Shown here: one piece after another, positions 1-15,314 of the stretch
Layout of the letters: every line of letters starts with the position of its first letter
How positions within the stretch are numbered: the stretch's first letter is position 1
Assembly: GCA_048886645.1 (NCBI GenBank)
Contig: JBHLKN010000002.1
Coordinates: forward strand, 1 to 49,177
Reading direction: 5' to 3'
Source of the DNA: Candidatus Hodarchaeota archaeon
GTDB lineage: Archaea > Asgardarchaeota > Wukongarchaeia > Wukongarchaeales > Wukongarchaeaceae
Length of the DNA: 49,177 bases
Notes under the pieces: generated by a model
The model's input: only the letters and a program-made list of their open reading frames with translations
Told to the model about the DNA's origin: nothing
Database searches by the model: none
Translations under genes and position numbers: made by a program

Positions 1-3000
1 CCTACTTTTTCTTTTTCTAAGGTTTCAGTAATGTTACTAAATTCACGTACCTTTCCTTCCATCGCGCCTACGTTTGTTTTAATGTTTTCAATAACTTGGT
101 TTATTGACTGTTTTATCCCCTCAATTTTTAGAAAGACTTCTTCACTAGTTTTATCTATAAAGCCATCTATTGTACTTACTAATTGCTCCATTCTTTCTTT
201 TTCAAGGTCAACCGTTTCCTTAATCTTGGTTTCAAGCTCTTTCATCGCTTGTTTGGCTTTTTCCAGATGGGTGCTAACTTCTAGCAGCCTGTTTTCTGCA
301 CCTTCTACTCCTGTTTTAAGCGTTTGAGTCAAATCCCTGTGTTTTTCTTCGGTTTCTTTAACTATATCTTCAACTTTTTTGATTCCTTCATTTTTCTTCT
401 CTATTAAACTATCTACACTTTCAGAAACCATTCCATCAATAAGGGTTTTAAGATCCTCTTTAACCGATATTTCCGCTTCTATTTCTCCTTCTCCTCCATT
501 TGTAGCTATTTCAGCTTCTCCTGTTGTTTCTATAGTTCCAAATTTTTGATTTATCGTATCTGTTATGGTCTCTTGAATACTTTGAAGCCACTCAAGACTC
601 TCCTCTTCAAACTCTTTCAACATTTTATCTAGACTTTCTGCAGTAAGAGTTATCGTTTCTCCACTATTTGCTTTTAATCCCTCAATATTTTGCTCCAAAT
701 CCCCCATTATCGTCTTTATACCATCTTCTAAATCGCTTTTTGCAGACCCTAAAGTTGTTTTCATATTGTCTAATGTATCCGATATCCCTTCACCACTTTC
801 CTGTTTAGTCTCCTCACAACTTTTCTCAGCATTTTCCATAATGGCGTTTTGTAGGCTTTCAGCCACTTTAAGAACGCTTTGGAAAACTTCGGAGATCTTA
901 TCTTTAATCCCTGGCAATGTCTCTGTTCCTTCTTCTAACATCGATATGAGCGCTACTTCCCCATTTTCTGCGTTAAGAATAAGATCATTAATTACATTAC
1001 CTGCACTTTCTAAAACCTCTCCTTCAGCGTTATTAACTATTTGACCGCCCTTTTCCCGAAGTTCTGAGAAAATTCCTGTTATATTTTGGGACTGTTCCTC
1101 ATTCATCTTTTGAGCAGTCTTCTCCTGATCCGTCAAACTTCTACTTAACCTGTCAAGAAACGAGCTAACCTTTTCCTTGAAATCCGTTTTATGTTTGGTT
1201 ATAAGATTTTGCAACTCTCCCCTTTTGCTAGCAATGTTTAACCCTTGAATTAGCTGATACATTTCTTGAGCACGTTCTTTGCCAAAAATTTTTTTCGCCA
1301 TTTTTTCGTCGAAAACTGGCTGAAGTTCATCTATAACTTTTTGAAGGTTTGTAAGTTCCCTAGATAACGTTAAATCAAACTGAGTTATGGCGTCTATTTG
1401 ATCAGTCAATAAAAGTTCGAGGCTTGGCGGTATATCGCTTTTAAGTTTACCTGCTTCTTTCTCAATATTTGTAGTTACTTCCTCTACCGCCTTTAATAAG
1501 GAATTTTCATAGTTCTTTGTAGTTTCATCTATCGATTGTAGAAAAGCCTTTAATCCCTTGTTTATCTTCTCTTTTAAATCTTCTTCCTGAAACTTTTTCA
1601 TTGATTCTTTTAAGAATGAAAACTCTGTAACTACTTCATCTTTACTTTGAGTTATGCTTTCCTCTATTTCTTTCATACAGTTATCAATCGTGTTTTTCGT
1701 AATGTTTTCAGCTTCACTAGTAATAGCTTGTATTTTTGATAAAAACAATTGTGTTGTCTTTTCTATAACGTTTTCTATATTTTGCGCAGTTATATCTGCT
1801 TGATTAGAAATTTTTTCGTTTTGTTGCCCAGTTACCTCTAAATTTTTCTCTTTTAGATCTATTATCTGTTTAATCGCCTTTTCATAGATATCTCTTATAA
1901 GGTCTAAAGATTCTTGCTTTGTTTCCTCAATTTTCGATGAAGAAACATCCACTTTAGCCTTATTTTCATTTACCATATTGCCAAAGATTATGTTTAGTGA
2001 TTGCCCCAAACCCTGTCTTAACGAAGTGTTGATTTGATCCGCTTTTTCTCGAACACCTTCCAAGATTTCCTTCGTTTTTTGAGCGCTATCTTCGACAAAA
2101 CTGCTTACTTCACCTTTAATCTCCTTTAACCTCCCTTCTTCTAATCCCTCATATTCTGAGGCTTTTCCTCCTAATGCTTGTAAGATGTTTTTATGTTCCT
2201 CTATTATAGCGTTCCAATCTGCTGAAGAGGCTTCTATCACTTGCCTTGTTTCTTCCCCCTTTTTTGAAACGTTTTCTTGAAGGATTTGAACAGCATCTTG
2301 AAGCTTGCTATTTACTTCTTCTTTCACCTCTATTAACGAATTCTTTCCTTTCTCTATCTCCTCTTCCAATCCCATGTTAAAGCTTTCTTGAGCTCCTTCT
2401 AAAGAACTCTTGACCTCGTTTGCAAAATCTAGGTAAGAATTTACAAGTTTTTCAAGCTCTAACTTGGCGGAAGCATTAAAATCTTCCAATATTTTCGTTA
2501 CCCGACCCAGTAAACTGTCAAGGGTTGTTCTAATTTTATCAACCCAACCTACCGATGTGATTTCTATTCCTGCCTTCAATCCATCTTGCTGAGCCTTTAT
2601 TCCGTTTTTTATCTTTACTGATAAGGATTCTACACTCGTTAGACTGTTTTGAACGCTCTCACTAAGGTTGCTTAAAGCCTTCTCTATCCCCTCTTTAACA
2701 CTATTAAGGTAGCCTTGTACTAGGGAAGTTCTTCCTTCTTTAAACCCATTTAATGCATCTATTATTGCTTGCGAAACATCTCCTGCACTATTCTCAAGAA
2801 CTTCTAACTGTTCTTTCATCGTGTTTTCTACGTCATCCCTCAATGAGGAAAAATGAGCTTCTAAATCCGCATATTTCTCAGCAGTCTCTTTTGAAATCAA
2901 CTCTCCTGCGTTGTTTGAGCTCGTTCTTAAGTCCATGCTAAACTTTGTGAAAATTGCCCCAAACTCTTCAGAAATTTCTTTAATAGGAGTTTCGATAGCA

Positions 3001-3380
3001 TTCATGAGCTCTGACATCTTCTGATTTAAGGAATCGATAAGGTTGTTAGTCACGGTATCCAAAGAAAATTTAGCATGTTTCCAAATATCATCTATATCCC
3101 CAGAGATCCCTCTAAGTTCCTCTTCAAGCTTTTTTTCAGCTTCAGCTGTAAGAACAATGCTTGGCGCAAGGGCAGTGTAAAGATCCACTTTTCCCGCTAT
3201 TTTTTTTACGAAACCCTTTCCCACAAGTTTATCAAGTGTCTCAGTAATCTCACTAGAATCCTTTTTTAAGTGTAAAGCTACTTCCTCTGCTGTTTTCGCT
3301 CCAAAAGCTGTAAGAACATTATATGCTTCTGCTTGAAGCTCCTCTAATCCTATTTTCTTCAAAGGTTCAATTACCGACAT
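1..3380 (-). CDS. Partial (C-terminus beyond window edge) giant alpha-helical repeat protein with N-terminal TrmB-like winged-helix domain; at least 1126 aa
   Basis: ATG at 3380-3378 sits 5 nt downstream of GGAGG (complement of 3384-3388). The N-terminus reads MSVIEPLKKIGLEELQAEAYNVLTAFGAKTAEEVALHLKKDSSEITETLDKLVGKGFVKKIAGKVDLYTALAP, a TrmB/MarR-type wHTH pattern. I checked the phase for in-frame stops in several 60-nt lines and found none. The ORF track lists no minus-strand ORF here, and it also omits the other edge-truncated ORF (bud32). The rest is E/K/S/T/I/L-rich helical sequence with no TM segment. Confidence 0.75.
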   Translation of the reverse strand, partial: MSVIEPLKKIGLEELQAEAYNVLTAFGAKTAEEVALHLKKDSSEITETLDKLVGKGFVKKIAGKVDLYTALAPSIVLTAEAEKKLEEELRGISGDIDDIWKHAKFSLDTVTNNLIDSLNQKMSELMNAIETPIKEISEEFGAIFTKFSMDLRTSSNNAGELISKETAEKYADLEAHFSSLRDDVENTMKEQLEVLENSAGDVSQAIIDALNGFKEGRTSLVQGYLNSVKEGIEKALSNLSESVQNSLTSVESLSVKIKNGIKAQQDGLKAGIEITSVGWVDKIRTTLDSLLGRVTKILEDFNASAKLELEKLVNSYLDFANEVKSSLEGAQESFNMGLEEEIEKGKNSLIEVKEEVNSKLQDAVQILQENVSKKGEETRQVIEASSADWNAIIEEHKNILQALGGKASEYEGLEEGRLKEIKGEVSSFVEDSAQKTKEILEGVREKADQINTSLRQGLGQSLNIIFGNMVNENKAKVDVSSSKIEETKQESLDLIRDIYEKAIKQIIDLKEKNLEVTGQQNEKISNQADITAQNIENVIEKTTQLFLSKIQAITSEAENITKNTIDNCMKEIEESITQSKDEVVTEFSFLKESMKKFQEEDLKEKINKGLKAFLQSIDETTKNYENSLLKAVEEVTTNIEKEAGKLKSDIPPSLELLLTDQIDAITQFDLTLSRELTNLQKVIDELQPVFDEKMAKKIFGKERAQEMYQLIQGLNIASKRGELQNLITKHKTDFKEKVSSFLDRLSRSLTDQEKTAQKMNEEQSQNITGIFSELREKGGQIVNNAEGEVLESAGNVINDLILNAENGEVALISMLEEGTETLPGIKDKISEVFQSVLKVAESLQNAIMENAEKSCEETKQESGEGISDTLDNMKTTLGSAKSDLEDGIKTIMGDLEQNIEGLKANSGETITLTAESLDKMLKEFEEESLEWLQSIQETITDTINQKFGTIETTGEAEIATNGGEGEIEAEISVKEDLKTLIDGMVSESVDSLIEKKNEGIKKVEDIVKETEEKHRDLTQTLKTGVEGAENRLLEVSTHLEKAKQAMKELETKIKETVDLEKERMEQLVSTIDGFIDKTSEEVFLKIEGIKQSINQVIENIKTNVGAMEGKVREFSNITETLEKEKV

Positions 3381-3503
3381 CTTCCTCCACTCTCAAAAAT
3401 TTTAATATTTTATTTTAAAAGATTTTAAAATGACATATAGCACTCGTAACCTATATTAAAGGTTCCTAAATGTTATTATATGTTTATATAAATGTTTTTG
3501 CCT

Positions 3504-5021
3504 TTATTTCAAATCTTTTTCGAGGGTTGATTTAGCCCTTTCACCTTCTTTATGGATGCTTTTTCCTTGTTTTATTGAATCTTTTATCGCTTTTTCTGCG
3601 TCGGCTTTTACGTCGTTTAGGGTGTTTTCTGCACTTTTGCCGAAGGAGTCTATAGCGGTATTAAACTTCGTTATCAAGACGTTTGAACTCTCTGTTACGC
3701 TTTGAGAAGTTTCTGTGAAAACGTTTTCAACCGCAGTTTTTTCTTCAGAAAACAGTGTTTTGACATTGCTCACTAAGGTTTCTAATTGCCCAATAATACT
3801 ATTTTTAGCTACTAATATTTTCTCTTCCAGCGTTTTTGACTGTTCCTCTAATTTAACGTCAAAATTGTTTAGCGTAGAATCTGCTGTATTCACTATGTTA
3901 TCTCTCGTTTGAAGTATTACTGATTGTTCATCCATCTTTGCTTGGTCTATCGTGTTTTTGAATTCATTCATTTCTGCTTCAATTTTTTCTTCAAAACTTT
4001 TAACATGAGCATTAAAGTTTTCAACGATCTTCGACTTAGTACTCTCAAAAACTTGTTGAAACTCATTAGTTTGAGAAGAAATAACATCGATTATGGATGA
4101 CTTTGTTTCCGTCAATTTTGCAAGAAATTTCTCAACAGAAGACTCCAGAGTTTTCAAAAAGAAATCCTCATATTTTATGGCCAAATCCTCAATTTCACCA
4201 AGTTTTTCAACAATCCTTGTATCAATATTTGCTCTAAGCTCCTCGGCTGTTTGGTTAAGTCTATCTATAGCGTCTTTAATCGTTGAATCAAACATTCCCT
4301 GAAACGCCATAAAAGAATCTGTCACCGCCTCTAATGTCTTAAGAAGATCACTTTGAAAGTCCTGTTTCAACCCTGTAACGGTTTGTCCTATTTTTTCCGA
4401 CTGTTCCTTAGTAGTTAAATCAATATCTTCAAACGCCTTAGTTTGAGCTCCTCCAAACTTATCTTTTATTCTTGTAAAAGCGTTTTCTAACTCACTTTCA
4501 AGGCTTTTAGTACTATTAACTATCTCCTGATTCACCTTTTTTATCGGTTCACCGATAGTTTCTCGAACTTTTAAAAGAGCCTGCTCCCGTTGAGTTGAAT
4601 GCCCAGTTAATAGATTTGTTAATTCATCTTTATGGGTAGTTATTAATCCGGCCAGGCTTGCTGTTCCTATGTTAAAAGTTTTTTTAACATTTTCTAGTTC
4701 CTCGGAAAACACTCCTTCCAAGACTGATTTATCAAGTTTTTCCGAAAACTCTTGTTCTCGTGAGTCAATTCCTCCATCTATCCTGCCTTTCATCCCTTCT
4801 AATTCACTTAAAAACTTTCCCGATACCGCGCCTATGGAATCTTCTGCTTCTTTTTTAAGCCGAGAAACCTCGTTCTTAATCGCTTCAATATTTGCACTAA
4901 AATTTTTACTTAAACCCTCCTTAGCTCCATCTAGGTTTGAAATCTCGTCATCCAGAGTCTTAAGAATCTCCTCTATATTTCCAACAGTTTCTTTAACCTT
5001 TTCTAAACTTTTTTCACTCAA
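3504..5021 (-). CDS. 505-aa all-alpha helical-repeat protein, paralogous in style to the giant protein downstream
   Basis: ORF track entry. The TTG start at 5021-5019 lies 6 nt after the TGA of the upstream NTPase gene, with SD-like AGGTGAG overlapping that stop. An amphipathic motif recurs: ENAFTRIKDKF, TDSFMAFQGMF, VENFNAHVKSF, LNNFDVKL, ITKFNTAIDSF. No Cys and no TM segment. Confidence 0.8.
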   Translation of the reverse strand: MSEKSLEKVKETVGNIEEILKTLDDEISNLDGAKEGLSKNFSANIEAIKNEVSRLKKEAEDSIGAVSGKFLSELEGMKGRIDGGIDSREQEFSEKLDKSVLEGVFSEELENVKKTFNIGTASLAGLITTHKDELTNLLTGHSTQREQALLKVRETIGEPIKKVNQEIVNSTKSLESELENAFTRIKDKFGGAQTKAFEDIDLTTKEQSEKIGQTVTGLKQDFQSDLLKTLEAVTDSFMAFQGMFDSTIKDAIDRLNQTAEELRANIDTRIVEKLGEIEDLAIKYEDFFLKTLESSVEKFLAKLTETKSSIIDVISSQTNEFQQVFESTKSKIVENFNAHVKSFEEKIEAEMNEFKNTIDQAKMDEQSVILQTRDNIVNTADSTLNNFDVKLEEQSKTLEEKILVAKNSIIGQLETLVSNVKTLFSEEKTAVENVFTETSQSVTESSNVLITKFNTAIDSFGKSAENTLNDVKADAEKAIKDSIKQGKSIHKEGERAKSTLEKDLK

Positions 5022-5027
5022 GTCTTC

Positions 5028-6752
5028 TCACTCACCTTTTCCTAACTTTTCAAAAAAACTTTTTTTGTGTTCTAAACTGCTTGAAACTGCTAAAGCTTTT
5101 TGAAGAATCTCTTTTTTCCTCTCCTCATCCCCTGCTATTTCGCATAATTTTAAGGCCGAATAAAGATAAGCGCTCGCTATGGCGTTCATGTTCTGGCTTG
5201 AAAATTCCCTTGAAATATCTTCAAGAACGTAAACTGCTTCTCTTGCCATACTTTTACCTTTCCATTCTGTGCCTATCTTAGTAAAGAATTCTGAAGCTTG
5301 TATCAAAAGCATCTTTGCAAAAATCGGCTTATCAAGCTCTATAAACGCTTTTGAAGCCTCATCATAAGTAATACCAGCTCTCTCAACATCTCCAGCGGCA
5401 GTATACAAAGCCCCACTTAAAGTAAAAAGCGAAAAAGCATCATGCAAAAACTTCTTCTCAAGAGTTCTCTTAGCCAATTTCTCAATTTTTACGGCCAAAT
5501 CATAAATCCTAAATGATTCTCCCCCTTCTTCCACTATCTCCTGTCCCATCTCAGAGATTTTACGAATTAAAGTAGCTGAAGCTTTCCAACCCTTATCTAT
5601 TTCCGCCGTCACCAAATCCACATAAACATAAAGCATGGTAATAGGATCTATCTCCTCTTTCTTATGAAGCAGTTCAAAAAGCGCATTAGATGCAATTTGA
5701 ATAAAACCATTTGCCACTTCTACAATGCCTTTACTTCTCAGCCCTTCTAATCCCTCTTTCACAACATTGGGAACAATATTCATTTCAATCTCCTGAACGG
5801 TCGAAATATTTAAAGGCATCCTTGCTAAAAATTTCAAAACTTTTCTCTCTTCATCAGAAAGAGCGTTTAAAGGAGCAGGCATTAACCTCTCAAAAATATC
5901 GTCTCCGCCCATCTCTTGCCATTTTTCCATAGTAATCTCTATAGAAGGATCTCCTACAAAATCCGCAATAGATGTCAAGATATAGATTATAGAAAAAGGT
6001 GTTCTATCCGTCAAAAGCACAATGTTCTTACGAACCTCATCTGCCAAACTTGAAATATTTGCCCCCTCTGTTACCCTATTAATAAGTATTTCAGCCTCCC
6101 TAACCCCCAAAGCCCCTAGTTCTACCAAAGAGAAACGATCCATAAGAAAGCTTTTCTCCCCAAAATAAGGCAAAAACCTTTCATCCAAAGCAAAAACAAA
6201 AAGTGCATTAATTTTCTCTCCCTCAAGCCACTCAACAAGATTTGTGAAAAACCGAGGCAGGTCCAAATAACCCTTCAAAATAAAACGTTCAAAACAGTCC
6301 ATCAAAAAAATAACATTTAGCCTACTAGCTTCTAAAAACTCTTCAACCTCTTTAAAACTATTTTTAACCGTTTCTTCAACCTCTGAAAGCTCCAAACCAG
6401 GAAAAATTAACGGCACTTGTGGAAGAGAAGAAACAATCTTTCTTATTCTCCTATCCTCTGGAGGGAAGAACGCTAAAAGATCCTCCACAATTTTCATAGC
6501 AAAACCCTGAATATCCCCACCAAGAGGTATAGAAAAACTTGATACCTTCCAACCTTCAGTCTCCGCTAAACCCCTAAAAAGCTTCAAAAGAAGTGATTTA
6601 CCAGATCCAGCTTTTCCTGTAACAATTACACCCCTTTTCCCTTCCTTCCTACTTTTAATACCATCAAGAATGTTCCTAAAATCGTTCAAAATTTCAGATC
6701 GAGCAACAAAATTTTTCTCTGAATCAAAAGAAGACAAACTCGGAAAAAGCAT
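5028..6752 (-). CDS. STAND-type P-loop NTPase (archaeal ATPase/AAA_16-like) with winged-helix-like segment and TPR-like C-terminus
   Basis: FVARSEIL precedes Walker A GKAGSGKS (6594-6617). A Walker B-like segment reads NVIFLMDCFE. A wH-like segment reads LSDEERKVLKFLARMPLNISTVQEI...LRSKGIVEV. The helical C-terminal third has TPR-like A/Y/G periodicity. Confidence 0.8.
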   Translation of the reverse strand: MLFPSLSSFDSEKNFVARSEILNDFRNILDGIKSRKEGKRGVIVTGKAGSGKSLLLKLFRGLAETEGWKVSSFSIPLGGDIQGFAMKIVEDLLAFFPPEDRRIRKIVSSLPQVPLIFPGLELSEVEETVKNSFKEVEEFLEASRLNVIFLMDCFERFILKGYLDLPRFFTNLVEWLEGEKINALFVFALDERFLPYFGEKSFLMDRFSLVELGALGVREAEILINRVTEGANISSLADEVRKNIVLLTDRTPFSIIYILTSIADFVGDPSIEITMEKWQEMGGDDIFERLMPAPLNALSDEERKVLKFLARMPLNISTVQEIEMNIVPNVVKEGLEGLRSKGIVEVANGFIQIASNALFELLHKKEEIDPITMLYVYVDLVTAEIDKGWKASATLIRKISEMGQEIVEEGGESFRIYDLAVKIEKLAKRTLEKKFLHDAFSLFTLSGALYTAAGDVERAGITYDEASKAFIELDKPIFAKMLLIQASEFFTKIGTEWKGKSMAREAVYVLEDISREFSSQNMNAIASAYLYSALKLCEIAGDEERKKEILQKALAVSSSLEHKKSFFEKLGKGE

Positions 6753-7040
6753 GAAAAAATCAACCCTACAAAAAACTAATTACTTTATATTATTATACAT
6801 CTTTAACTATTTCAAAATTTTCTCTCTTTAAAAATACTCAAAAAATCCTTAAAAAATGAAAAAACACCTTTAGAACCCCTAAATTTTTTAAAAACTTGTA
6901 AATCAAATTTTTTAAAAATCTATCAAAAAGTAAACCAAAAAAAAGATAAGTCTGATATTCCTTTTTAGATATAAAAGAAAAGTAAATAGATTATAAAATC
7001 CTTTTCAAAGTTCTAAAAAGGCTGGAAGGAGTTTTTTATT

Positions 7041-7943
7041 GTGAAACGTGACGCTAGTGGTCGCTTGCACGTAAAATGCGTTATCTGGGGACCGCAATTA
7101 AGCGGGAAATCCACCATATTCAATGTTCTACTTTCTCGGATGGAGAGAGTTGTTTCCCAAAACTCGATCATCAAAACTTCCACAGAATTCGGGAAAACAA
7201 TGATGTTTGATTATGCTCCTCTCAGACTAAGTGAAAACGTAGTAATAGATCTTTATACAACAGGGGGAGCCTCCTTGTTCTATGCTTTAAGACGAATGAT
7301 TCTTCAAGATTCTGACTGCGTGATTTTTGTCGCAGACACATTAAGAAATGCAGCTGAAAAAAACGTAGAGAGTTTAAGAGAATTAAGAGCCTACTTACAC
7401 CAACTAAAAATAAACCCGAAAATCCTCTTCCTACTCAACCAAAGAGGAGACGTTGTAGAGCCTATAACCCGTTTTGAATTTATCCAAAATTTAGGCGACC
7501 TTGGCATATACGGTCCAGACGTATACGAAGTATCTGCAACAATGGGTTTAGGCGTTTTTGAAGCCTTCAAAATGATGATGAAAAAAACATTAAAAAAAGA
7601 AGAAGAACCTAAAAAAGTAGAAATAATCGAAGAAAAACCCTTTATTATTCCTGAAACTATCCCTCTTGAAGAAAAACCCTTCGAAACAAAAATAGAATAC
7701 CCCTCACCTATAACTGCAGAAACCGAAAAACCCATCATAAAAGAAGACGAAGAAATTTTACCAGAACTAAGCCCCATAAAACGCTCTAAACTAATAATTT
7801 TACGCAGATTAAAAAAACGATTAGAAACCCAACTCTATTCCGCAGATAAATATCTAAAAATAACGCCAAAAGAACTCGATGAAATAAGAACCCAACTAAA
7901 AGAAATAGAAGCCGAAGAAGCAACGCTTCTCTACGGAAAATAA
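7041..7943 (+). CDS. MglA-family small GTPase with about 115-aa acidic, Pro-rich and coiled C-terminal extension
   Basis: GTG start 8 nt after GGAG. It aligns block by block with Myxococcus MglA as I recall it: VKCVIWGPQLSGKST (P-loop), TMMFDYAPL (MglA TLFFDFLPL), DLYTTGGASLFY (MglA LYTVPGQVFY), CVIFVADT, NQRGD (MglA NKRD), SATMGLGVFEAF. The tail carries EEKPF repeats and a terminal helix. Confidence 0.8.
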   Translation: MKRDASGRLHVKCVIWGPQLSGKSTIFNVLLSRMERVVSQNSIIKTSTEFGKTMMFDYAPLRLSENVVIDLYTTGGASLFYALRRMILQDSDCVIFVADTLRNAAEKNVESLRELRAYLHQLKINPKILFLLNQRGDVVEPITRFEFIQNLGDLGIYGPDVYEVSATMGLGVFEAFKMMMKKTLKKEEEPKKVEIIEEKPFIIPETIPLEEKPFETKIEYPSPITAETEKPIIKEDEEILPELSPIKRSKLIILRRLKKRLETQLYSADKYLKITPKELDEIRTQLKEIEAEEATLLYGK

Positions 7944-8010: not shown

Positions 8011-8454
8011 CTATTTTTTGAAACGTTCAATTACCATCCTCTTTATCTTACTCGACTTTATGTCCCCATACCGTTTTAAACGAACAATCTCTACATCAAC
8101 TCCCCGCCGAGCAAGTTCTTCTTTTAAAACGTTTTCATCAACTTCCTGATCATAACCCAAAGCAATTAAGTCAGGCTTCAACTCCTCAATTATTCTCAAT
8201 CTATCATCCTCATAACCCAAGTGAACCTGATTTACTGGCTTTAAAGACTGAACCAAAAACCGCCTTTCTTCAGCCGAAAAAATAGGCGGTTTCCCCTTTT
8301 CTTCTACAACACTTGAATCAAGGGCAACAACCACAATAAGCTCTCCTCCTTCCTCACCAAGTTTCCGTGCCTCCTCAAGAAAAATAACATGAGCCGGATG
8401 AATAATGTCAAAAGTACCAAAAACCATAACCCGAAAACCCATATATACACCCAA
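8011..8454 (-). CDS. ribL: FAD synthetase (FMN adenylyltransferase), archaeal RibL type, cytidylyltransferase fold
   Basis: VMVFGTFDIIHPAHVIFLEEARKLG...LIVVVALD...LKPDLIALGYDQ matches the RibL/CTP-transferase (H/T)xGH pattern. The real start is probably the MGF at 8442. Confidence 0.85.
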   Translation of the reverse strand: MGVYMGFRVMVFGTFDIIHPAHVIFLEEARKLGEEGGELIVVVALDSSVVEEKGKPPIFSAEERRFLVQSLKPVNQVHLGYEDDRLRIIEELKPDLIALGYDQEVDENVLKEELARRGVDVEIVRLKRYGDIKSSKIKRMVIERFKK

Positions 8455-8619: not shown

Positions 8620-9237
8620 GTGGAGAGATCAAAAATGCGTCTTGCCATGTTTAACGGAATATTTGCTGGCATCGGCGCAACAATCCTCGCTTTTGCCTTA
8701 ATAAATGATAGTTTACCAACCTTTTTTATCTCACTTTTATTTTTAATGATCGTGGGAATTATAGCCGTTTGGAATACTTTTAGTGAGGTTTACATCAACA
8801 CCGAAGGCTTCGTACATCCTGAAGATAAACTGATCGGCAACTATTTATTTTTTTGTTTCATAATCGCAGAAATTCTAACTTTTGGCTACTTCTACAAAGG
8901 CGCTCGACCAATAAGCTTCATAACGGGCTTAGGAATATTTGCCGGTTTAATTTTCCTATTCTTCCTGACTCTCCTACAAGGAATAAACCCTCTAGCCGTG
9001 GTACAAGGAACAGTAACGCAGAAAGATTACATTCAAAAAGAAAAAGAAGCCACTGCCCGAATACTCATCTTCGCTATATTTTTAGGATTAATTATTGCAG
9101 GCATAGAAATGGCCTTTCTTGCCGCTTACGATCAATTAGAATACTCCATAGCCGCAACAGCTCTTGGAATAACCGCGGCAACCATCACAGGCATATTCAG
9201 CCTTTTATTGCTAACAAGACAAAATTTCCCAGTTTAA
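8620..9237 (+). CDS. Polytopic membrane protein of unknown function (about 6 hydrophobic helices)
   Basis: ORF track entry with uninterrupted hydrophobic segments. GTG at 8620 or ATG at 8635 could be the start. The overlapping ORF 8853-9245 is Arg-rich and is a frame shadow. Confidence 0.6.
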   Translation: MERSKMRLAMFNGIFAGIGATILAFALINDSLPTFFISLLFLMIVGIIAVWNTFSEVYINTEGFVHPEDKLIGNYLFFCFIIAEILTFGYFYKGARPISFITGLGIFAGLIFLFFLTLLQGINPLAVVQGTVTQKDYIQKEKEATARILIFAIFLGLIIAGIEMAFLAAYDQLEYSIAATALGITAATITGIFSLLLLTRQNFPV

Positions 9238-9412: not shown

Positions 9413-10672
9413 ATGCATGTAAATAAAGGAGTAACTTTAATGCAAAAAAAACGAGAAGAATCTCCGTTTCAAATAGCTTTCAAATTAAACGATCTTTGTA
9501 AAAAGTGCGGATATTGCGATAATTGGATCAATTGCCCTGGTCTTGAAAACTGTACCGGTTGTGGAAGTTGTACGGTCGCATGCCCCCATGAAGCAAGAAT
9601 ATTAGTGCCTGATAAAAGAGAAAGAGGACAGGTAAAGATCAAGGTTGAGGGAGAAACCTATTTTCTGCCTGAAAGAATCACAGTATTAAAAGCTTTAGAG
9701 ACGATAGGTTACCGCTTCTCCTCCTTCCCCGAAAAAGACACAATTTTCGCCCCTTGCAGAACTGGAGGTTGCTGGAGCTGCGCTGTGGAAATCAATGGGA
9801 TGCTAAAGCCTTCCTGCATCACACCGGTTAAAGAAAACATGAATATCAAAATAACAGAACTGGAAAACTTTACTCCTATACGTCTTGTTAGGGGTTTTTC
9901 CGGACATCCCGTAGGCGGGGTAGGCACACCAGCTGAACTTAAAAGAATCCGAGGATACATTGAAGTCGCTTTTTTTGCCCAAGGTTGCTGTTTTCGATGT
10001 CCTTCCTGCCAAAACTGGCACATAACCTATTCTTCTAAAGGCGAACTTCTAACACCTAAAGAAGCTGCGATAAAAATCACAGAGTATAGAAAAATCCACC
10101 AAGTAGACCGCATGGCGATAAGCGGCGGAGAAAGCACCCTAAATAAACCATGGCTCCTCCAGTACATAAAAGAGGCAAAAAACCTCAACAAAGATGAAAA
10201 AGCCCGGGTCCACGTCGACACCAACGGAGCAATACTCACCCCGGACTACATAGACGCCCTCCTAGAAGAAGGAATGACCGACATAGGCATCGACGTAAAA
10301 GGTCTAGAACTTGAAACCTTTATGAAAATCACAAACCTCCATGATAAAGAACTCGCCCAAAAATATTTCGAAACAGAATGGAACGCAGTAAAATACATAA
10401 TAGACAACTACTGGCAAGATGTGTTTTTAGGTTTAGGAATACCCTATAACCCAGTCCTAATTTCCCTAGAAGAGGTTAGAAAAATCGGGGAAAAAATCGT
10501 TAAATGGGAACCAAACATACAAGTATGTGCTTTAGACTACCGCCCAGAATTTCGAGCAAAACACCTCATATGGCCAACAATCGCCGAAATGATGAAAGTA
10601 AAACAAACCTTAGACGAAACCGGCCTAAAAAACGCTATGTGCCAAACAAAAGGAGGCCATATAGGACCATGA
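9413..10672 (+). CDS. Radical SAM enzyme (PflA/AmmeMemoRadiSam-like core) with N-terminal 4Fe-4S ferredoxin and NuoG/HndD-type 2Fe-2S domains
   Basis: CKKCGYCDNWINCPG..CTGCGSCTVACPHEA (Cys clusters). CRTGGCWSCAVEINGMLKPSCITPV (2Fe-2S fer2_4 pattern). GCCFRCPSCQNW fits CX3CX2C followed by QNW. Confidence 0.85.
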   Translation: MHVNKGVTLMQKKREESPFQIAFKLNDLCKKCGYCDNWINCPGLENCTGCGSCTVACPHEARILVPDKRERGQVKIKVEGETYFLPERITVLKALETIGYRFSSFPEKDTIFAPCRTGGCWSCAVEINGMLKPSCITPVKENMNIKITELENFTPIRLVRGFSGHPVGGVGTPAELKRIRGYIEVAFFAQGCCFRCPSCQNWHITYSSKGELLTPKEAAIKITEYRKIHQVDRMAISGGESTLNKPWLLQYIKEAKNLNKDEKARVHVDTNGAILTPDYIDALLEEGMTDIGIDVKGLELETFMKITNLHDKELAQKYFETEWNAVKYIIDNYWQDVFLGLGIPYNPVLISLEEVRKIGEKIVKWEPNIQVCALDYRPEFRAKHLIWPTIAEMMKVKQTLDETGLKNAMCQTKGGHIGP

Positions 10673-11469
10673 AACACCGCGATTACTCCCACCAAAAAAA
10701 TAAGTTGAAATTTGATAGGAGTGTTTGGGTCCCTCAAGCCCTAAAAATAGAAGAAGCGATCAAGCTAGAACCAATCCTCAAAAAATACCTAGTAAAAAAA
10801 GGAATCGATTTCAAATCTAAAGAAGCCCTCCGCCTTTACAACCTCCTAATAGCACGAGAAAAATATGACCTCGACCTAGAACTACCTAAAAACGCTTTAA
10901 CCCCAACTTCTCCCCTACGCTTCGCTTTCCTCAAAGAAACCATCAAGCCGAAAAACGATGTTTTAGAAATAGGAACAGGAGCAAGCGCCATCATAGCACT
11001 CCTTGCAGCAAAACATTTCAATGCAAAAGTCTTCGCCACAGAAAAAGACCCTCAACTGTACGAATACGCTAGACTAAACGTTAAGAAAAACAGGTTAGAA
11101 GACCGCGTAAAAATAATCCCAGCAGAAAAAAACAACGTTATAAAAGGAATAATAGGGGAAGACGTTAAATTTGATGCCATCCTTTCAAACCCTCCATGGT
11201 ATAAAGAAAAAGAAACAAGAGGGAAAGCATTCTCAGGAAAAACCCACGAACTCAGCGATCAAACCCTATCATCCCAAATCATAAAAGAGGGAGTAGAATT
11301 CCTAAAAAAAGAAGGAATAATAGCGTTACTTTTAAGCGCAAAACACCAAGAAAGAATAAAAAAACTTGAAAACCAAATGAAAAACCTAAAACTCAAAACA
11401 ATCCTCATAAAACTAACAGCAGGAAAAAGAACCCGAGCAATCCTCATAGGAAAAAGAAAAATATATTAG
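10669..11469 (+). CDS. RlmF/METTL16-like class I SAM-dependent (N6-adenine type, NPPW) RNA methyltransferase
   Basis: ATG at 10669 overlaps the upstream TGA (ATGA). GIDFKSKEALRLYNLLIAREKYDLDLELPKNALTPTSPLRF parallels the RlmF N-terminal region. VLEIGTGASAI is motif I and FDAILSNPPWY is motif IV. The 10504 start in the ORF track would overlap the radical SAM gene by 169 nt with a low-complexity basic extension, so I rejected it. Confidence 0.8.
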   Translation: MKHRDYSHQKNKLKFDRSVWVPQALKIEEAIKLEPILKKYLVKKGIDFKSKEALRLYNLLIAREKYDLDLELPKNALTPTSPLRFAFLKETIKPKNDVLEIGTGASAIIALLAAKHFNAKVFATEKDPQLYEYARLNVKKNRLEDRVKIIPAEKNNVIKGIIGEDVKFDAILSNPPWYKEKETRGKAFSGKTHELSDQTLSSQIIKEGVEFLKKEGIIALLLSAKHQERIKKLENQMKNLKLKTILIKLTAGKRTRAILIGKRKIY

Positions 11470-11660: not shown

Positions 11661-14171
11661 CTATTTTTTCTCTTCTTTGATTTCAATTTTTGCTAAGGTA
11701 AGGAAATCTTGCCTTATGGCTTCAATAAATGCTTCGTGTGCCTTTCTAGTATTGTCGTCAAATTCAACCTTTGACGCTTGAATTAACTCTTCCAAGAAGA
11801 ATTCTTTCTTCTGATCTGCTAAAATACGGGCAGTCCTCAAAATCTTTTTAACATCATCCCCTACCTCAGCTTCTTCAATCTCTTCATAGCTCAAAGAAAT
11901 CGTGACTTTATCTTGAAGCACTGACGTGGGGGTTATACCGAAAATCTGAATAACTTCTTTATCTAGATTAAGCTGTATATCAAGGACACCAAATGTATCA
12001 GAAGAATAGATATTCCCATACTTTTCCTCAACACACTCCGCAAAACAAAGTACTTTTTCTTCCAAACGTTTACTTGGCTTATCACTCAAAATCAACACAC
12101 AATAAAAAGTGCCAGTATAAACAAAATAGTAAGGATGAGTAGGATAAACTTTCATCGTTTCTAAACTAGTTCTTACAACTTCTTTTGTAATATCTTTAAT
12201 AGCTGTGAAGAAACCGCTCACCAAATTCCTATCTACGACACTTCTCTCCTCAGTAATAACCCCAGAAGGGGTCTGATCATATAAAGCAAAACTCTGCAAA
12301 ATAACCATAATCCTGCGAATCTTCTCCCTATCAAGACGCTCCTGTTTACGAGTTGAGTAAAACCTCGATAAAACAACCGAAGAAAAAGTACCCATTGCCA
12401 TTAAAATTAAGTACGGTGAATAATCTAAAAACTGATCCATGAAAGTTGCCTTTATAACCAATAAAAGTTGTAACGATTGGGGCATGTAATTCTTTAGGCA
12501 AGCTTTTATATTGATATAATATGTCCCTTCATCCAAGGAATTGGTTTTTATATTTAGCTTGTATACGCCTTCACCTACCTCCTCTAACTGGCCCGAACCA
12601 TAATCCCACTCATAGGTAAGGTTAGCGCCAGTGAGCAAGGAACCCTGACTGTCGCTGAAAGTGACTTCGAACACGGCTGTTTCTCCAATTTCCCTAGTAA
12701 GGGTAATTTTGTCAGCGCTTAAAGTGGTTGATATGGGGATTATTTCAAGAGTAAGTTGCAGAGACTGGCTGTCATAGTTCTCCTTGGAAGCAGTCACGTT
12801 GATGCAGTAGGTTCCCAAGTCCAAGTAACCAGTATCTATTGTTAAGTTGTAGACGCCGTTGCCTATTTCGTTTAATGGCTCCGATCCGTAGCTCCATTCG
12901 TATACAACTTTTGCACCTGTTATGGGGGCATCGTTATAGGTGTCTCTGAAGGCGACTTCTAAAGCTGCTGCTACACCAGACTCCCTCACCAGGATGGTGT
13001 AAGGCGCGTTTAAAGCCGTTGAAATGTTAACCACGTTAACCTTTATCGGAAAGCGTTGGCGTTCGAACCCTGGAGCAATGGCGTTAACCCAGACAGGGTA
13101 ATATAGCCCCGAATCAATTGTTTGAGGTGCTTGGAGGGTTACTGTATAGCTGCTCAAAACGGGATCATTGTGTTTTTCAAAACCGAATCCTCCCATCCAA
13201 GGTGTTCCATTGTAGGTTATCTCTATTTGAGCGTTTTCGACAAGTTTCAGTTTACTCTCAGAAATGTTGAAGTAAGCGTAGTAAACGCTGAAATTTACAT
13301 AGTCGCCGTATGTAGCCTTGACTTCTGGGGGCAGAATATAATACGTGCTCTCTGATTCTATAATTAAACCAATATTATCTACATAAATTTGGGTTGTATT
13401 GGAGTAAGGTTCACTGCCATAAGCGTCATTTGTAACAACCAACTCGACTTTAAACTCTAAATAGCTCGGCAAACGCTCGTTTAACCATTCTGAGAGCTTC
13501 ATTCCTTCAGCAGAGGTAATTTTAACGTAGGTCCATCCACTACCCGGCCCGGTGAGGTCTCTGAGTCTGCCTTCCCACATCAACGTGTCGTTGATCCAAA
13601 ACCGAAGGTTGATCCTATACCTTATCTGCCATGTCTCGTTATCTGCTGCCATAACATAGTAATCGAAAACAAGCCTAGCACCCTCTTCAGTTTCTGGAAT
13701 TGGAGTGTGCCTATCAACCATAACAGTTTGACTCCACCAAACTTTATCGTCTTCATCGTAGTCGTAATATGATCCTTCAAGATCCCCATCAATTCTCAGA
13801 AGTATGTTGACTTCTCCAGGCCCAGTTTCGTTCTGATGAGTTGGATCTCCGGTCCAATAAGTTGTCATGTTATTCTGATGAGAGGGTGCGTCGTAGGTAC
13901 CGTTGTTCCATGGTTTGTATGTGTCTTCAAAGGTACCGTTGATGAGCCAATTTTCTTCGCCATCCGTCACGTAAGTTGAACGGCTAGGTAGATCAGGTGA
14001 TTGCAGGCTTTCAGACGTATCGTAAGCCTCTTCATACAGATTAAAAGGGTCAAAATATACGGATAATAACGTTGAAGTGACAAATAAGACTAATAAAAAT
14101 CCAGTTAGAAACGACTTTTTTTGGGTTTGATAAACCATACCCATTTGGTATATCAAACAAATATCCCCCAA
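11661..14171 (-). CDS. Type I-like surface protein: N-terminal anchor, CBM/jelly-roll-like domain, three Ig-like repeats, one TM helix, cytoplasmic longin/roadblock-like domain and helical tail
   Basis: ORF track entry. Hydrophobic aa 21-39. About 14 N-x-S/T sequons, all before aa 580. WLINGTFEDTYKPWNNG. Tandem repeats at aa 383-480 and 481-576 (nt 12444-13025). TM at aa 586-603 (nt 12363-12416). The cytoplasmic part reads ILQSFALYD..GVITEE..LVSGFFTAIKDITKEV..MKVY..YYFVYTG..FYCVLILSD..LEEKVLCFAECVEEKYG. The start may be M10 or M12. Confidence 0.8.
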   Translation of the reverse strand: MGDICLIYQMGMVYQTQKKSFLTGFLLVLFVTSTLLSVYFDPFNLYEEAYDTSESLQSPDLPSRSTYVTDGEENWLINGTFEDTYKPWNNGTYDAPSHQNNMTTYWTGDPTHQNETGPGEVNILLRIDGDLEGSYYDYDEDDKVWWSQTVMVDRHTPIPETEEGARLVFDYYVMAADNETWQIRYRINLRFWINDTLMWEGRLRDLTGPGSGWTYVKITSAEGMKLSEWLNERLPSYLEFKVELVVTNDAYGSEPYSNTTQIYVDNIGLIIESESTYYILPPEVKATYGDYVNFSVYYAYFNISESKLKLVENAQIEITYNGTPWMGGFGFEKHNDPVLSSYTVTLQAPQTIDSGLYYPVWVNAIAPGFERQRFPIKVNVVNISTALNAPYTILVRESGVAAALEVAFRDTYNDAPITGAKVVYEWSYGSEPLNEIGNGVYNLTIDTGYLDLGTYCINVTASKENYDSQSLQLTLEIIPISTTLSADKITLTREIGETAVFEVTFSDSQGSLLTGANLTYEWDYGSGQLEEVGEGVYKLNIKTNSLDEGTYYINIKACLKNYMPQSLQLLLVIKATFMDQFLDYSPYLILMAMGTFSSVVLSRFYSTRKQERLDREKIRRIMVILQSFALYDQTPSGVITEERSVVDRNLVSGFFTAIKDITKEVVRTSLETMKVYPTHPYYFVYTGTFYCVLILSDKPSKRLEEKVLCFAECVEEKYGNIYSSDTFGVLDIQLNLDKEVIQIFGITPTSVLQDKVTISLSYEEIEEAEVGDDVKKILRTARILADQKKEFFLEELIQASKVEFDDNTRKAHEAFIEAIRQDFLTLAKIEIKEEKK

Positions 14172-14309: not shown

Positions 14310-14480
14310 AATCCTTATAGGAAAAATATATTAAAAAACATATTAGTTAATAATAACACAATAAAAAGCCACAAGGGCCAGTAGCTCAGCTAGGTAGAGC
14401 GACAGAAAAGAACAAAAACCCGTCGAAGCTCTTAACCTTCAAAAGGAAAGTAACCTGTTGGTCGGGGGTTCAAATCCCCT
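14310..14480 (+). repeat. Right copy of the diverged direct repeat (relic of the methyltransferase C-terminus, promoter, and tRNA-Lys)
   Basis: GAA ATC CTT ATA GGA AAA ATA TAT TAA encodes EILIGKIY*. The intact gene end at 11436-11469 encodes AILIGKRKIY*, so the relic has an in-frame 6-nt deletion. The homologous promoter and tRNA body follow. Confidence 0.8.
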
Positions 14481-14491
14481 CTGGCCCGCCA
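14375..14491 (+). tRNA. tRNA-Lys(CUU) with two introns (about 22 nt near position 30/31 and 18 nt at canonical 37/38) and encoded CCA
   Basis: Acceptor GGGCCAG/CTGGCCC, D arm GCTC-AGCTAGGTA-GAGC, T arm GGGGG-TTCAAAT-CCCCT, discriminator G plus CCA. Removing 14406-14427 and 14435-14452 gives anticodon arm ACAGG-CTCTTAA-CCTGT, with anticodon CTT at 14431-14433, and a 74-nt mature body that resembles archaeal tRNA-Lys. Splice junctions can slide by 1-2 nt. Confidence 0.85.
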
Positions 14492-14726: not shown

Positions 14727-15314
14727 ATGAAACTATTCCATGTAGTTAAAGACGATTTAGAAGAAATTAACGAAGCAGAATTTTACGAAGGCGATGTATA
14801 CGTAGTAGACGATGGAATGCGAATTTTCATATGGCGAGGCAAAGATTGCACTGTTGATGAAAAGTTCGTCGGAGCATGGCTCAGTAACAAGCTAGATATG
14901 GACAGACGTGGGTACCCCAAGGTTGTCTCGTGTACTCAAGGAGACGAACCGCAAGATTTGATAGATTTGCTTGGCGGTGCTCCAAAAGTGAAGCCTGGAG
15001 GGACTCCAGGACTCCTAGCACACGTAGAAGTGGAGAAAGAAGTGTTTAAACCAAAGCTTTACAAGGCGATAGGTCCTGAAAACTTCGAGGAAGTGCCTCT
15101 TGCAAGGTCAAGTTTAGTCGGTGATGACGCTTTTGTTTTAGACGACGGTCTTAACATCTATGTTTGGCTTGGTCGTGGTGCTTCTGCGCTTGAAAAGTTT
15201 GAAGCAGGTCGTATCGGGCGGAAGCTTGATTCTGAGAGAAAATTTACACCTCAAGTGATCGTTATACATGAAGGCGAAGATGAGCCACCGAAATTTAAAG
15301 AACTCTTAGGATAA
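14727..15314 (+). CDS. Two-domain gelsolin/cofilin-fold protein (Asgard 2DGel-like actin regulator)
   Basis: There are two gelsolin repeats: FYEGDVYVVDDGMRIFIWRGKDCTVDEKFVGAWLSNKLD...TQGDEPQDLIDLLGG and LVGDDAFVLDDGLNIYVWLGRGASALEKFEAGRIGRKLD...HEGEDEPPKFKELLG. Both match the gelsolin pattern D.F.LD.G..IY.W.G...s..Ek..A......EG.EP..F. SD AAGGAG lies upstream. Confidence 0.8.
   Translation: MKLFHVVKDDLEEINEAEFYEGDVYVVDDGMRIFIWRGKDCTVDEKFVGAWLSNKLDMDRRGYPKVVSCTQGDEPQDLIDLLGGAPKVKPGGTPGLLAHVEVEKEVFKPKLYKAIGPENFEEVPLARSSLVGDDAFVLDDGLNIYVWLGRGASALEKFEAGRIGRKLDSERKFTPQVIVIHEGEDEPPKFKELLG

Follow-up and report, generated by a model that had tools for sequence, protein, structure and literature searches.

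Positions 1-49,177 of the forward strand of contig JBHLKN010000002.1 (GC content 38.3%; this whole stretch of 49,177 nucleotides is called the window below) come from a Wukongarchaeota (Asgard) archaeon and begin with three genes that form a conserved unit. They encode a STAND-type P-loop nucleoside triphosphatase (NTPase), a protein with a long array of 11-residue (hendecad) repeats, and a giant hendecad protein that is headed by a winged helix-turn-helix (wHTH) domain of the TrmB family. The same genes are found together in distant lineages of the Asgard archaea, and the MglA-like small GTPase gene that lies next to them in the window is not included in the unit. With somewhat less than even confidence, we propose that the module specifies an ATP-switched scaffold of long rods, which would be anchored on DNA and would space or bridge the nucleoid.

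All three genes lie on the minus strand. The gene set, the domain calls and the gaps of 6, 123 and 288 nucleotides (nt) that had been given in a first-pass annotation of the window were reproduced from the open reading frames (ORFs). The NTPase gene (5028..6752; 574 residues) stops 6 nt before the TTG start codon of the ORF for the 505-residue hendecad-array protein (3504..5021; the "mid" family), and an AGGTGA-like ribosome-binding site is situated within the 3' end of the NTPase gene; the two proteins are translationally coupled. An AT-rich spacer of 123 nt (3381..3503; 22.8% GC) separates the mid gene from that of the giant, which starts with an ATG at 3380 and is open at the window edge (1..3380), so that the N-terminal 1126 residues are visible. 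Within the spacer there are TATA-like boxes, and a GGAGG ribosome-binding site precedes the giant's ATG by 5 nt; an internal promoter may lie here. The mid/giant junction measures only 5-19 nt in loci L010 and L013. On the other side of the NTPase gene a divergent intergenic region of 288 nt (6753..7040), AT-rich as had been noted (20.5% GC versus 38.3% for the window), contains TATA-like boxes oriented toward both flanking genes and is a putative promoter region. Across it lies the gene of the MglA-like GTPase (7041..7943, plus strand; 300 residues, GTG start).

Conservation of the gene order was assessed on six independent loci, with distant NTPase homologues from five other Asgard lineages that have unrelated flanks. 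A hendecad protein is encoded 10-36 nt downstream of the NTPase in all five of these lineages, and the gap between the NTPase gene and the next gene is 6-36 nt in all loci, the window included. A TrmB-headed giant is adjacent in four of the five (L007, L010, L012 and L013). In L007, where the NTPase shows 34% identity, a TrmB-headed giant of 1188 residues is followed by the NTPase and by a helical protein of at least 528 residues that runs into the contig end. The Hodarchaeota locus L010 has the NTPase, a 716-residue helical protein and a TrmB-headed giant of 1413 residues, and the Heimdallarchaeaceae locus L013 has the same order with proteins of 484 and 1258 residues. In the Helarchaeota locus L012 the NTPase is followed by a helical protein of 1110 residues, and in the Promethearchaeota (L014/L015) by a helical protein of 718 residues only. 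In L003-L005, L007, L010, L013 and L014 the gene that comes directly after that of the NTPase encodes an orthologue of the mid protein, and fragments of the giant come also from Odinarchaeota.

The 1110-residue protein of L012 (11917-15249, plus strand) is of the giant type: its N-terminus aligns with the wHTH profile of the giants (hhalign probability 85%) and its C-terminus is the giants' terminal domain. A separate mid protein is missing in this locus, and the protein with the order wHTH, hendecads and C-terminal domain comes directly after the NTPase. Since L012 contains only the giant type and L014/L015 only the mid type, the module also exists in two-gene forms. The synteny thus holds across Asgard lineages at 22-34% identity, and the possibility considered beforehand, that homologues would never be syntenic elsewhere, does not agree with this distribution. 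It is the adjacency among close Wukongarchaeota relatives that says little, because their neighbourhoods are wholly colinear. The module is spread over many Asgard classes with length and architecture kept, and therefore looks vertically inherited and not patchy.

This comparison also settles the place of the GTPase, which the first-pass annotation had counted as the fourth member of the cluster. The GTPase adjoins the module only in close relatives, whose entire neighbourhood is syntenic. By tblastn it was found only in the Wukongarchaeota loci L001, L002 (a 13-residue fragment) and L004-L006, and no MglA-like gene was detected by the same method within 10 kb of the module in L007, L010, L012, L013 or L014. 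The GTPase is therefore a lineage-specific neighbour and not a part of the module, and the argument for a role in polarity or the cytoskeleton that had been built on it is not supported. Four to five genes away from the module, Arf/Ras-type small GTPases are encoded in L010 (153-737) and L012 (17586-18077); both are negative for MglA by tblastn. Small GTPases are very abundant in Asgard genomes, so that their presence there may well be due to chance.

As a protein, the GTPase was rightly assigned to the family of MglA, the polarity GTPase of Myxococcus and Thermus, as an atypical member (PDB MglA 6hjh, E 5e-17, 65 bits, versus 1e-3 for Arl1). Its G domain spans residues 1-190, and a linker rich in Pro and Glu plus a C-terminal helix make up residues 191-300. 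In line with MglA, it has a P-loop of the type GPxLxGK(S/T)T (GPQLSGKST aligns with GPGLCGKTT, and LYTTGG with LYTVPGQ) and keeps the MglA-type threonine (T73) in place of the aspartate of the G3 motif. It differs from MglA in the 110-residue C-terminal extension, in a G4 motif that reads QRGD (residues 134-137) and not NKRD, and in having K52 and A77 at the positions of R53 and Q82, which we take to be the catalytic residues of MglA. Judged from these substitutions, the GTPase may be impaired in hydrolysis.

A module of four genes for cytoskeletal or membrane remodelling, driven by the MglA-like GTPase, is what the first-pass annotation had in mind. The likeness of the GTPase to MglA is real, its gene is the divergent neighbour in 5/5 of the Wukongarchaeota loci in which that side of the NTPase gene is present, and in Myxococcus MglA works with long coiled-coil partners such as AglZ and FrzS. 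Nevertheless, we regard this explanation as very unlikely: the adjacency is uninformative in a neighbourhood that is syntenic throughout, MglA-like genes are lacking near the module in the five distant loci, the positions aligned with R53 and Q82 of MglA carry Lys and Ala, and no Roadblock/LC7 (MglB) domain was found by Pfam in the neighbouring ORFs of at least 80 residues (8011-8454, 8620-9237, 9413-10672, 10504-11469 and 11661-14171).

The NTPase was described in the earlier annotation as having STAND architecture, and this is borne out by a confident structural model and its matches. The AlphaFold model, made from an alignment of 25 family members, has a mean predicted local distance difference test score (pLDDT) of 87.6. 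The best match by Foldseek in the PDB is the STAND protein with tetratricopeptide repeats (TPR) 6mfv of P. horikoshii (E 3e-11, 645 columns), followed by Avs3 (5e-8), Cdc6/Orc1 (3e-7) and SSO1545 (5e-7), and then by Dark and the plant and animal NLRs; the TM-scores stay low (0.28), which is to be expected where the domains of such large proteins are posed differently. The nucleotide-binding domain (NBD), helical domain (HD) and winged-helix domain (WHD) take up residues 1-369 (5646-6752), with the Walker A motif GKAGSGKS at residues 46-53 (6594-6617) and the Walker B motif with D152 at 6288-6314. The remainder, residues 370-572 (5037..5645), is a TPR-like, all-helical putative sensor domain of ten helices, as assigned by DSSP on the model, with pLDDT values mostly of 84-97. 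In the family alignment G49 and G51 never vary, and the conservation of K52 and D152 is 90% or higher; further family motifs are 'S.R.PF.L' and, in the helical C-terminus, D.ERAG and WK..AR.

The model therefore supports the assignment as a STAND protein of the order NBD-HD-WHD-TPR without an effector domain. Neither Pfam nor the model revealed a fused effector or output domain: the NBD starts about 40 residues into the protein and the TPR domain ends it. In these respects the protein resembles the known STAND-TPR NTPases (the PH0952-type protein 6mfv, MalT, Avs3, SSO1545 and Orc1/Cdc6), with which it shares the domain order and the Walker motifs. It differs from them in the absence of a fused effector or DNA-binding domain, in forming a small Asgard-only family of its own, and in its invariable hendecad-protein partner. 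Curated Pfam models all remained below their cut-offs (AAA_16 27.4 versus 32.6 bits, nSTAND5 19.7 versus 34, nSTAND1 14.9 versus 27.1, NACHT 13.7 versus 26.7), and ATPase_2 matched weakly.

A HMMER scan of 1.84 billion representative proteins yielded 31 relatives of the NTPase, about 25 of which are full-length (550-630 residues, 21-34% identity). The full scan was needed, as a word-index protein search is blind to this family and returned only relatives of 87-92% identity (81-92% when the search with the 505-residue protein is counted in); a single-protein scan of the GTDB genomes likewise gave only Ca. Wukongarchaeum yapensis (87% identity). The family members that could be named all belong to the Asgard archaea (Wukong-, Frey-, Hod-, Hel-, Hermod- and Heimdallarchaeota, and Lokiarchaeota/Promethearchaeota) and include one from the complete genome of Heimdallarchaeum endolithica. 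In the databases they are designated only as hypothetical, 'ATP-binding', 'AAA family ATPase' or 'TPR repeat' proteins.

The two helical proteins share a repeat whose period is 11 residues. Fourier analysis of the hydrophobic positions gave a sharp peak at 3.66-3.68 residues (11/3), with a power of 4-15 against a maximum of 0.9 +/- 0.3 for shuffled sequences, and essentially no power at the 3.5 residues of a heptad. In the 505-residue protein the peak is at 3.68 residues (power 7.2 versus 0.9 +/- 0.3), and the phase of the hydrophobic residues stays constant from about residue 100 to 470. Register tracking by a Viterbi procedure placed residues 101-485 (3567..4721) in 35 consecutive, uninterrupted 11-mers of one register (385 residues). 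With residues 100-473 arranged in 11-residue rows, a hydrophobic residue occupies position 2 in 91% of the rows and position 6 in 79%, and positions 5, 9 and 10 are in part hydrophobic or take small residues. The one-register stretch comprises 421 residues in the L013 orthologue and 622-627 residues in those of L010 and L014, and mid orthologues carry up to about 57 11-mers. Shuffled sequences gave runs of 0-80 residues (0-42 in the comparison for the 505-residue array), and among 108 ORFs of at least 250 residues from the window and the fetched loci, the 19 with runs of at least 60 residues all belong to the mid or the giant family.

The recurrence of a signature every 35-45 residues, as it had been described before, thus has to be replaced by the hendecad: the 'F-x-x-x-hydrophobic' signature is the hendecad pattern, which recurs every 11 residues. 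Periodicity of phenylalanine at 35-45 residues was tried and rejected, as its Fourier power (0.1-0.2) equals the maximum of the shuffles (0.1-0.2). No internal sequence repeats were found by self-BLAST, so that only the pattern is conserved and not the sequence of the repeat. In composition the helical proteins are rich in Glu, Lys, Ser and Thr, with about 0-2% Pro, no Cys or Trp and a pI of 4.7-5.0 (4.8 for the 505-residue protein, which has about 0% proline); the arrays are strongly acidic, with a net charge of -5 to -7 per 100 residues and a rod pI of about 4.7. The earlier statement that neither protein has a transmembrane (TM) segment agrees with a highest 19-residue Kyte-Doolittle mean of at most 1.22, and neither a hydrophobic N-terminal segment nor a signal peptide was detected. 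Matches to SMC/Rad50, chemoreceptors, S-layer or tape-measure proteins were also absent, both in Pfam (E-values up to 1) and in NCBIfam.

As single helices, the array of the 505-residue protein would be about 57 nm long, those of its longest orthologues about 93 nm, and the giant up to about 190 nm in total. These would be among the longest uninterrupted helical rods predicted for any archaeon.

For both helical proteins the best matches outside Pfam are the tail parts of ZorA profiles (E 5e-11 to 6e-15; the giant has a PADLOC E-value of 6e-15). The ZorA tail has been seen by electron microscopy as a 70-nm right-handed coiled coil of helices of about 500 residues, with core positions i, i+4, i+8 and i+11 (PMC11946911). 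The likeness lies in helices that are hundreds of residues long with an 11-residue pattern of hydrophobic core positions. The matches cover only profile positions of about 230-800, and in NCBIfam they score 22-25 bits versus cut-offs of 190-250. Unlike ZorA, the helical proteins have no MotA/ExbB-like TM domain, and they are not accompanied by ZorB, ZorC or ZorD. The likeness is thus one of repeat pattern and is no proof of membership.

These matches bear on a further possibility raised by the first-pass annotation, namely an NLR- or Avs-like antiviral module in which the TPR domain of the NTPase would sense a viral protein and activate the helical proteins as effectors or transmitters, in the manner of a ZorA tail. 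Indeed, Avs3 and the plant and animal NLRs are among the top Foldseek matches of the NTPase, and the ZorA tail profiles point in the same direction. However, the NTPase matches no defence NTPase in PADLOC, the module contains no nuclease, protease, TIR or pore-forming domain, the MotA-like membrane part lies outside the ZorA match, and the proteins have no TM segment. The genes lie in a housekeeping setting and not in a defence island, a scan of IMG/VR gave no close relative, and the distribution looks vertical. A defence function thus has little probability.

The two helical proteins had been assumed to be paralogous. They have the repeat type in common, as stated, and paralogy was rejected at the level of sequence: in BLAST the 505-residue protein scores 21-31 bits against the giants, which is the background of shuffled sequences, with a lone exception of 44 bits to the giant of L010. 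Within the mid family most cross-lineage pairs score 47-85 bits (58-85 for the window protein versus those of L007 and L010; shuffles at most 26). The family has a conserved core of about 90 residues (residues 210-300 of the 505-residue protein; 4122..4394), in which L226, S236, F237, R254, D267 and E285 are invariant. A hidden Markov model of this core gives 102-121 bits on every mid protein and at most 18 bits on the giants, in which the core is absent. The mid and giant proteins are thus separate families that share a repeat type, as judged from their sequences, and the mid core would be a candidate docking site.

The giant gene is cut by the window edge, so that its end could not be seen in the first-pass annotation. 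The close relatives of the window protein are full-length at 1498-1534 residues (L005, 13381-17877; L004, 13389-17993; L003, 3561-8165), and full lengths across all relatives range from 1188 to 1534 residues. The TrmB-like winged helix that had been recognized at the N-terminus is well above the Pfam cut-off (PF01978; residues 7-73, 3162..3362; E 5e-12, 45.8 versus 25.6 bits). A sequence search of the PDB with the N-terminal 110 residues found TrmB (3qph, E 9e-5) and TrmBL2 (5box/5bpd, E 0.013), and the alignment extends into the helix that follows the wHTH. Hendecads fill the visible remainder (residues 79-1126; 1..3146), in 12 in-register segments of 11-177 residues that are split by register shifts; the Fourier power at 3.667 residues is 12.3 versus 0.9 for shuffles. 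The giants in general have 9-13 such segments, the longest of which measures 215-281 residues in full-length copies. The wHTH and the last 130-160 residues or so are rejected as non-repeat by the Viterbi procedure.

The full-length giants end in a conserved globular domain of about 140 residues (residues 1342-1498 in L005, outside the window), with the consensus 'PIE.T(W/Y)..G......m..RTKstitil.P...l......R.rv.......RDgEE..ig'. An AlphaFold model of this domain, made for the homologous fragment P0071 with 7 sequences, has a pLDDT of only 45. When this low-confidence model was compared with 350,542 PDB chains by Foldseek, TrmBL2 took every one of the first 8 places (E 2.6e-4 at best, over about 190 columns); the match after these has an E-value of 0.09, and proteins of the PLD fold appear further down. 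The fragment P0071 is named 'sugar-specific transcriptional regulator TrmB' by JGI. It is also noteworthy that L007 encodes a TrmB regulator of canonical size 1.5 kb upstream of its giant (1271-2284, minus strand; 337 residues; 3qph, E 4e-6); its presence may be coincidental, or it may be related to the protein from which the giant arose.

Taken together, this suggests that the giant is a protein of the TrmB/TrmBL2 type in which the linker or dimerisation helix has been expanded to about 850-1,300 residues of hendecads (about 1,260). Like TrmB and TrmBL2, it carries a TrmB wHTH at the N-terminus with a helix after it, and has the same order of wHTH, helix and C-terminal domain; the C-terminal alpha/beta domain matches only TrmBL2 structures, on a model of pLDDT 45 and with no sequence similarity detected. 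TrmBL2, by contrast, has about 260 residues with one short dimerisation helix at the place where the giant has its 850-1,300 or so hendecad residues, and the giant differs from it again in that its operon also encodes a STAND ATPase and another rod protein. In archaea TrmBL2 is a protein of the chromatin: it builds stiff nucleoprotein filaments, brings SMC to a stall and, in crystals with DNA, is a symmetric dimer of dimers (PMC11840125). The presence of TrmB/TrmBL2-like elements at both ends of the giant points to DNA or chromatin rather than to membrane remodelling.

The TrmB family consists of transcription regulators, and a role of this kind has to be weighed as well. The NTPase combines AAA_16/STAND and TPR parts as in the MalT/LAL architecture, minus the DNA-binding domain of its own, and the adjacent giant provides a TrmB wHTH together with a C-terminal domain that, in the model, is TrmB-family-like. 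The module could thus be a split STAND transcription regulator, in which the ATPase-TPR protein would sense a ligand and control promoter binding by the giant, with the arrays as spacers or oligomerisation elements. We consider this unlikely, since a gene-specific regulator could do without a rod of 1,260 residues and without another rod protein of 500-700, and since L014/L015 retain the ATPase and a rod protein without a wHTH protein. Moreover, no conserved target gene was found beside the module, the flanks of which differ in every lineage.

In the scaffold that we tentatively propose instead, the hendecad arrays would make up long right-handed coiled coils, rod-shaped and nearly straight, after the example of the 70-nm tail of ZorA. 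The giant would be a parallel dimer with its paired wHTH heads on DNA at one end and, at the other, TrmBL2-like C-terminal domains that associate with one another. The TPR domain of the NTPase would recognise the rods, for which the mid core with its invariant surface residues R254, D267 and E285 is the candidate site, and ATP-dependent oligomerisation of the NTPase would nucleate, cluster or release them.

Several observations weigh against this proposal. DNA binding is not assured, as the wHTH of the giant is slightly acidic (net charge -2) and the rods are strongly so. A DNA-binding partner is not obligatory either: no giant gene was found within 10 kb in L014/L015. For the C-terminal domain, Pfam, the PDB sequence search, hhalign versus the canonical 337-residue TrmB and tblastn versus plasmids were all negative, so that the likeness to TrmBL2, seen with a model of pLDDT 45, is suggestive only. 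The contacts among the three module proteins are conjectural, and both the oligomeric state of the rods and their extended rather than folded-back form are assumptions of the model. Finally, the 11/3 periodicity is also a hallmark of amphipathic helices on lipid surfaces, and the giant scores above the cut-off of the Pfam Apolipoprotein family.

The last point calls for a comparison with the lipid-surface proteins. The Apolipoprotein model (PF01442, cut-off 90) gives 95.5 and 91.8 bits for giants, summed over 5-7 stretches (7 for the 95.5 bits of the window protein), and scores below the threshold for the 505-residue protein (51.3 bits) and its orthologues (37-75 bits); ApoLp-III and Phasin, as well as ATG17 and Exonuclease-VII-L, match weakly. 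Apolipoproteins, perilipin-4 and alpha-synuclein resemble the helical proteins in their tandem 11-mers, in the 3.67 residues per turn and in the long register; lipid-binding proteins built of 11-mers typically show such a strict 11/3 period, which holds its register across hundreds of residues. The proteins could lie as apolipoprotein-, perilipin- or synuclein-like helices on a membrane or lipid droplet. The giant would then serve as a tether for DNA to that surface, and loading or stripping of the coat would fall to the ATPase.

We nevertheless rate such a coat as improbable. The Pfam scores follow from the 11-mer periodicity, summed over many stretches, and the weaker matches have the same cause. 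The arrays of the module are strongly acidic and have no basic interfacial stripe, except for Lys at one position, and their hydrophobic stripe is narrow, with two strong positions occupied by bulky Ile, Phe or Leu as in the cores of coiled coils. Unlike the apolipoproteins, they have 0-2% Pro and no proline-punctuated 22-mers, lack a secretion signal or TM segment, and are found in a cytoplasmic context with ends of the DNA-binding type; nothing that would link them to lipid was found.

The proposed scaffold can be taken further, to an Asgard-specific nucleoskeleton-like system in which TrmBL2-derived dimeric rods of 0.1-0.2 micrometres would be anchored on chromatin by their wHTH domains, joined tail to tail by way of the C-terminal domains, and assembled and disassembled by the STAND ATPase together with the second rod protein. 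In this specific form we think the idea rather unlikely to be right. If it were true, such rods would span a sizeable share of the cell width and would be functionally like lamina, synaptonemal or long-tether coiled-coil proteins, an ATP-switched long coiled-coil scaffolding with which to space, bridge or compartmentalise DNA. If rods do assemble on DNA under the control of the ATPase, a new kind of nucleoid scaffold would exist at the base of the eukaryotic lineage. The Asgard archaea are the closest known relatives of the eukaryotes, and how they arrange their chromatin and the inside of the cell is a question still to be answered.

The components are each of a known kind, namely a STAND ATPase, a member of the TrmB family and a hendecad coiled coil. 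What appears to be new, and restricted to the Asgard archaea, is the stretched architecture of TrmBL2 and the operon that joins it to a dedicated STAND ATPase and a further rod protein. The module was found in each of the major Asgard lineages that could be identified by name, and nowhere else among the 1.84 billion representative proteins. That this composition had not been described, as the earlier annotation supposed, is in agreement with full-text searches of the literature library available here, which found no account of the module, and with the generic names in the databases. Whatever its function, the giant shows that a regulator of the TrmB family can be lengthened by pure hendecad repeats of more than 1,200 residues, and the family offers natural material for the study of right-handed coiled coils. 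The strains Loki-B35 and Loki-B36 together with Hod-HC1, which are cultivated or enriched Asgard archaea, have been used for proteomics in a preprint of 2026 (10.64898/2026.07.02.735847). Members of the module exist in Lokiarchaeota and Hodarchaeota, so that the proposal may be testable in such strains.

The surroundings of the module consist of housekeeping genes, for a radical-SAM enzyme, an RNA methyltransferase, a geranylgeranyl reductase, a short-chain dehydrogenase/reductase, an aldehyde dehydrogenase and a class-I tRNA synthetase. The gelsolin gene that had been noted 7 kb away is indeed present (14727-15314, plus strand), but as ordinary Asgard content in a housekeeping region it lends no support to a cytoskeletal role. 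It encodes two gelsolin repeats in 195 residues (Pfam E 7e-24), is kept in the related contig L005 and belongs to the Asgard 'eukaryotic signature' genes, without a link to the module. Close to it, a tRNA gene of 114 nt (14375-14488, plus strand) was found by Rfam (50.3 bits) and missed by ARAGORN; it is probably an intron-containing archaeal tRNA. The gene at 11661-14171 (minus strand) encodes a predicted membrane protein of 836 residues (918-1050 in its relatives) with external PKD/invasin-like repeats and a cytoplasmic C-terminal domain of about 200 residues that has no family match. The longest ORF of the RNA methyltransferase (Methyltransf_10; 10504-11469, plus strand) overlaps the radical-SAM/2Fe-2S gene (9413-10672, plus strand) by 169 nt; its true start probably lies further downstream, as the relatives are called at 264-265 residues.

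Over the three minus-strand genes (positions 1-7000) both the GC skew and the AT skew of the plus strand are strongly negative. This is caused by the purine-rich coding strand of the Glu/Lys-rich hendecads and is not a replication feature. Finally, the gene order in L004 and L005 shows what lies just past the left edge of the window: beyond the giant gene these loci contain a convergent gene for a MarC-family membrane protein, and genes for a HisA/HisF-like protein and an Obg/DRG-type GTPase (MMR_HSR1-TGS).

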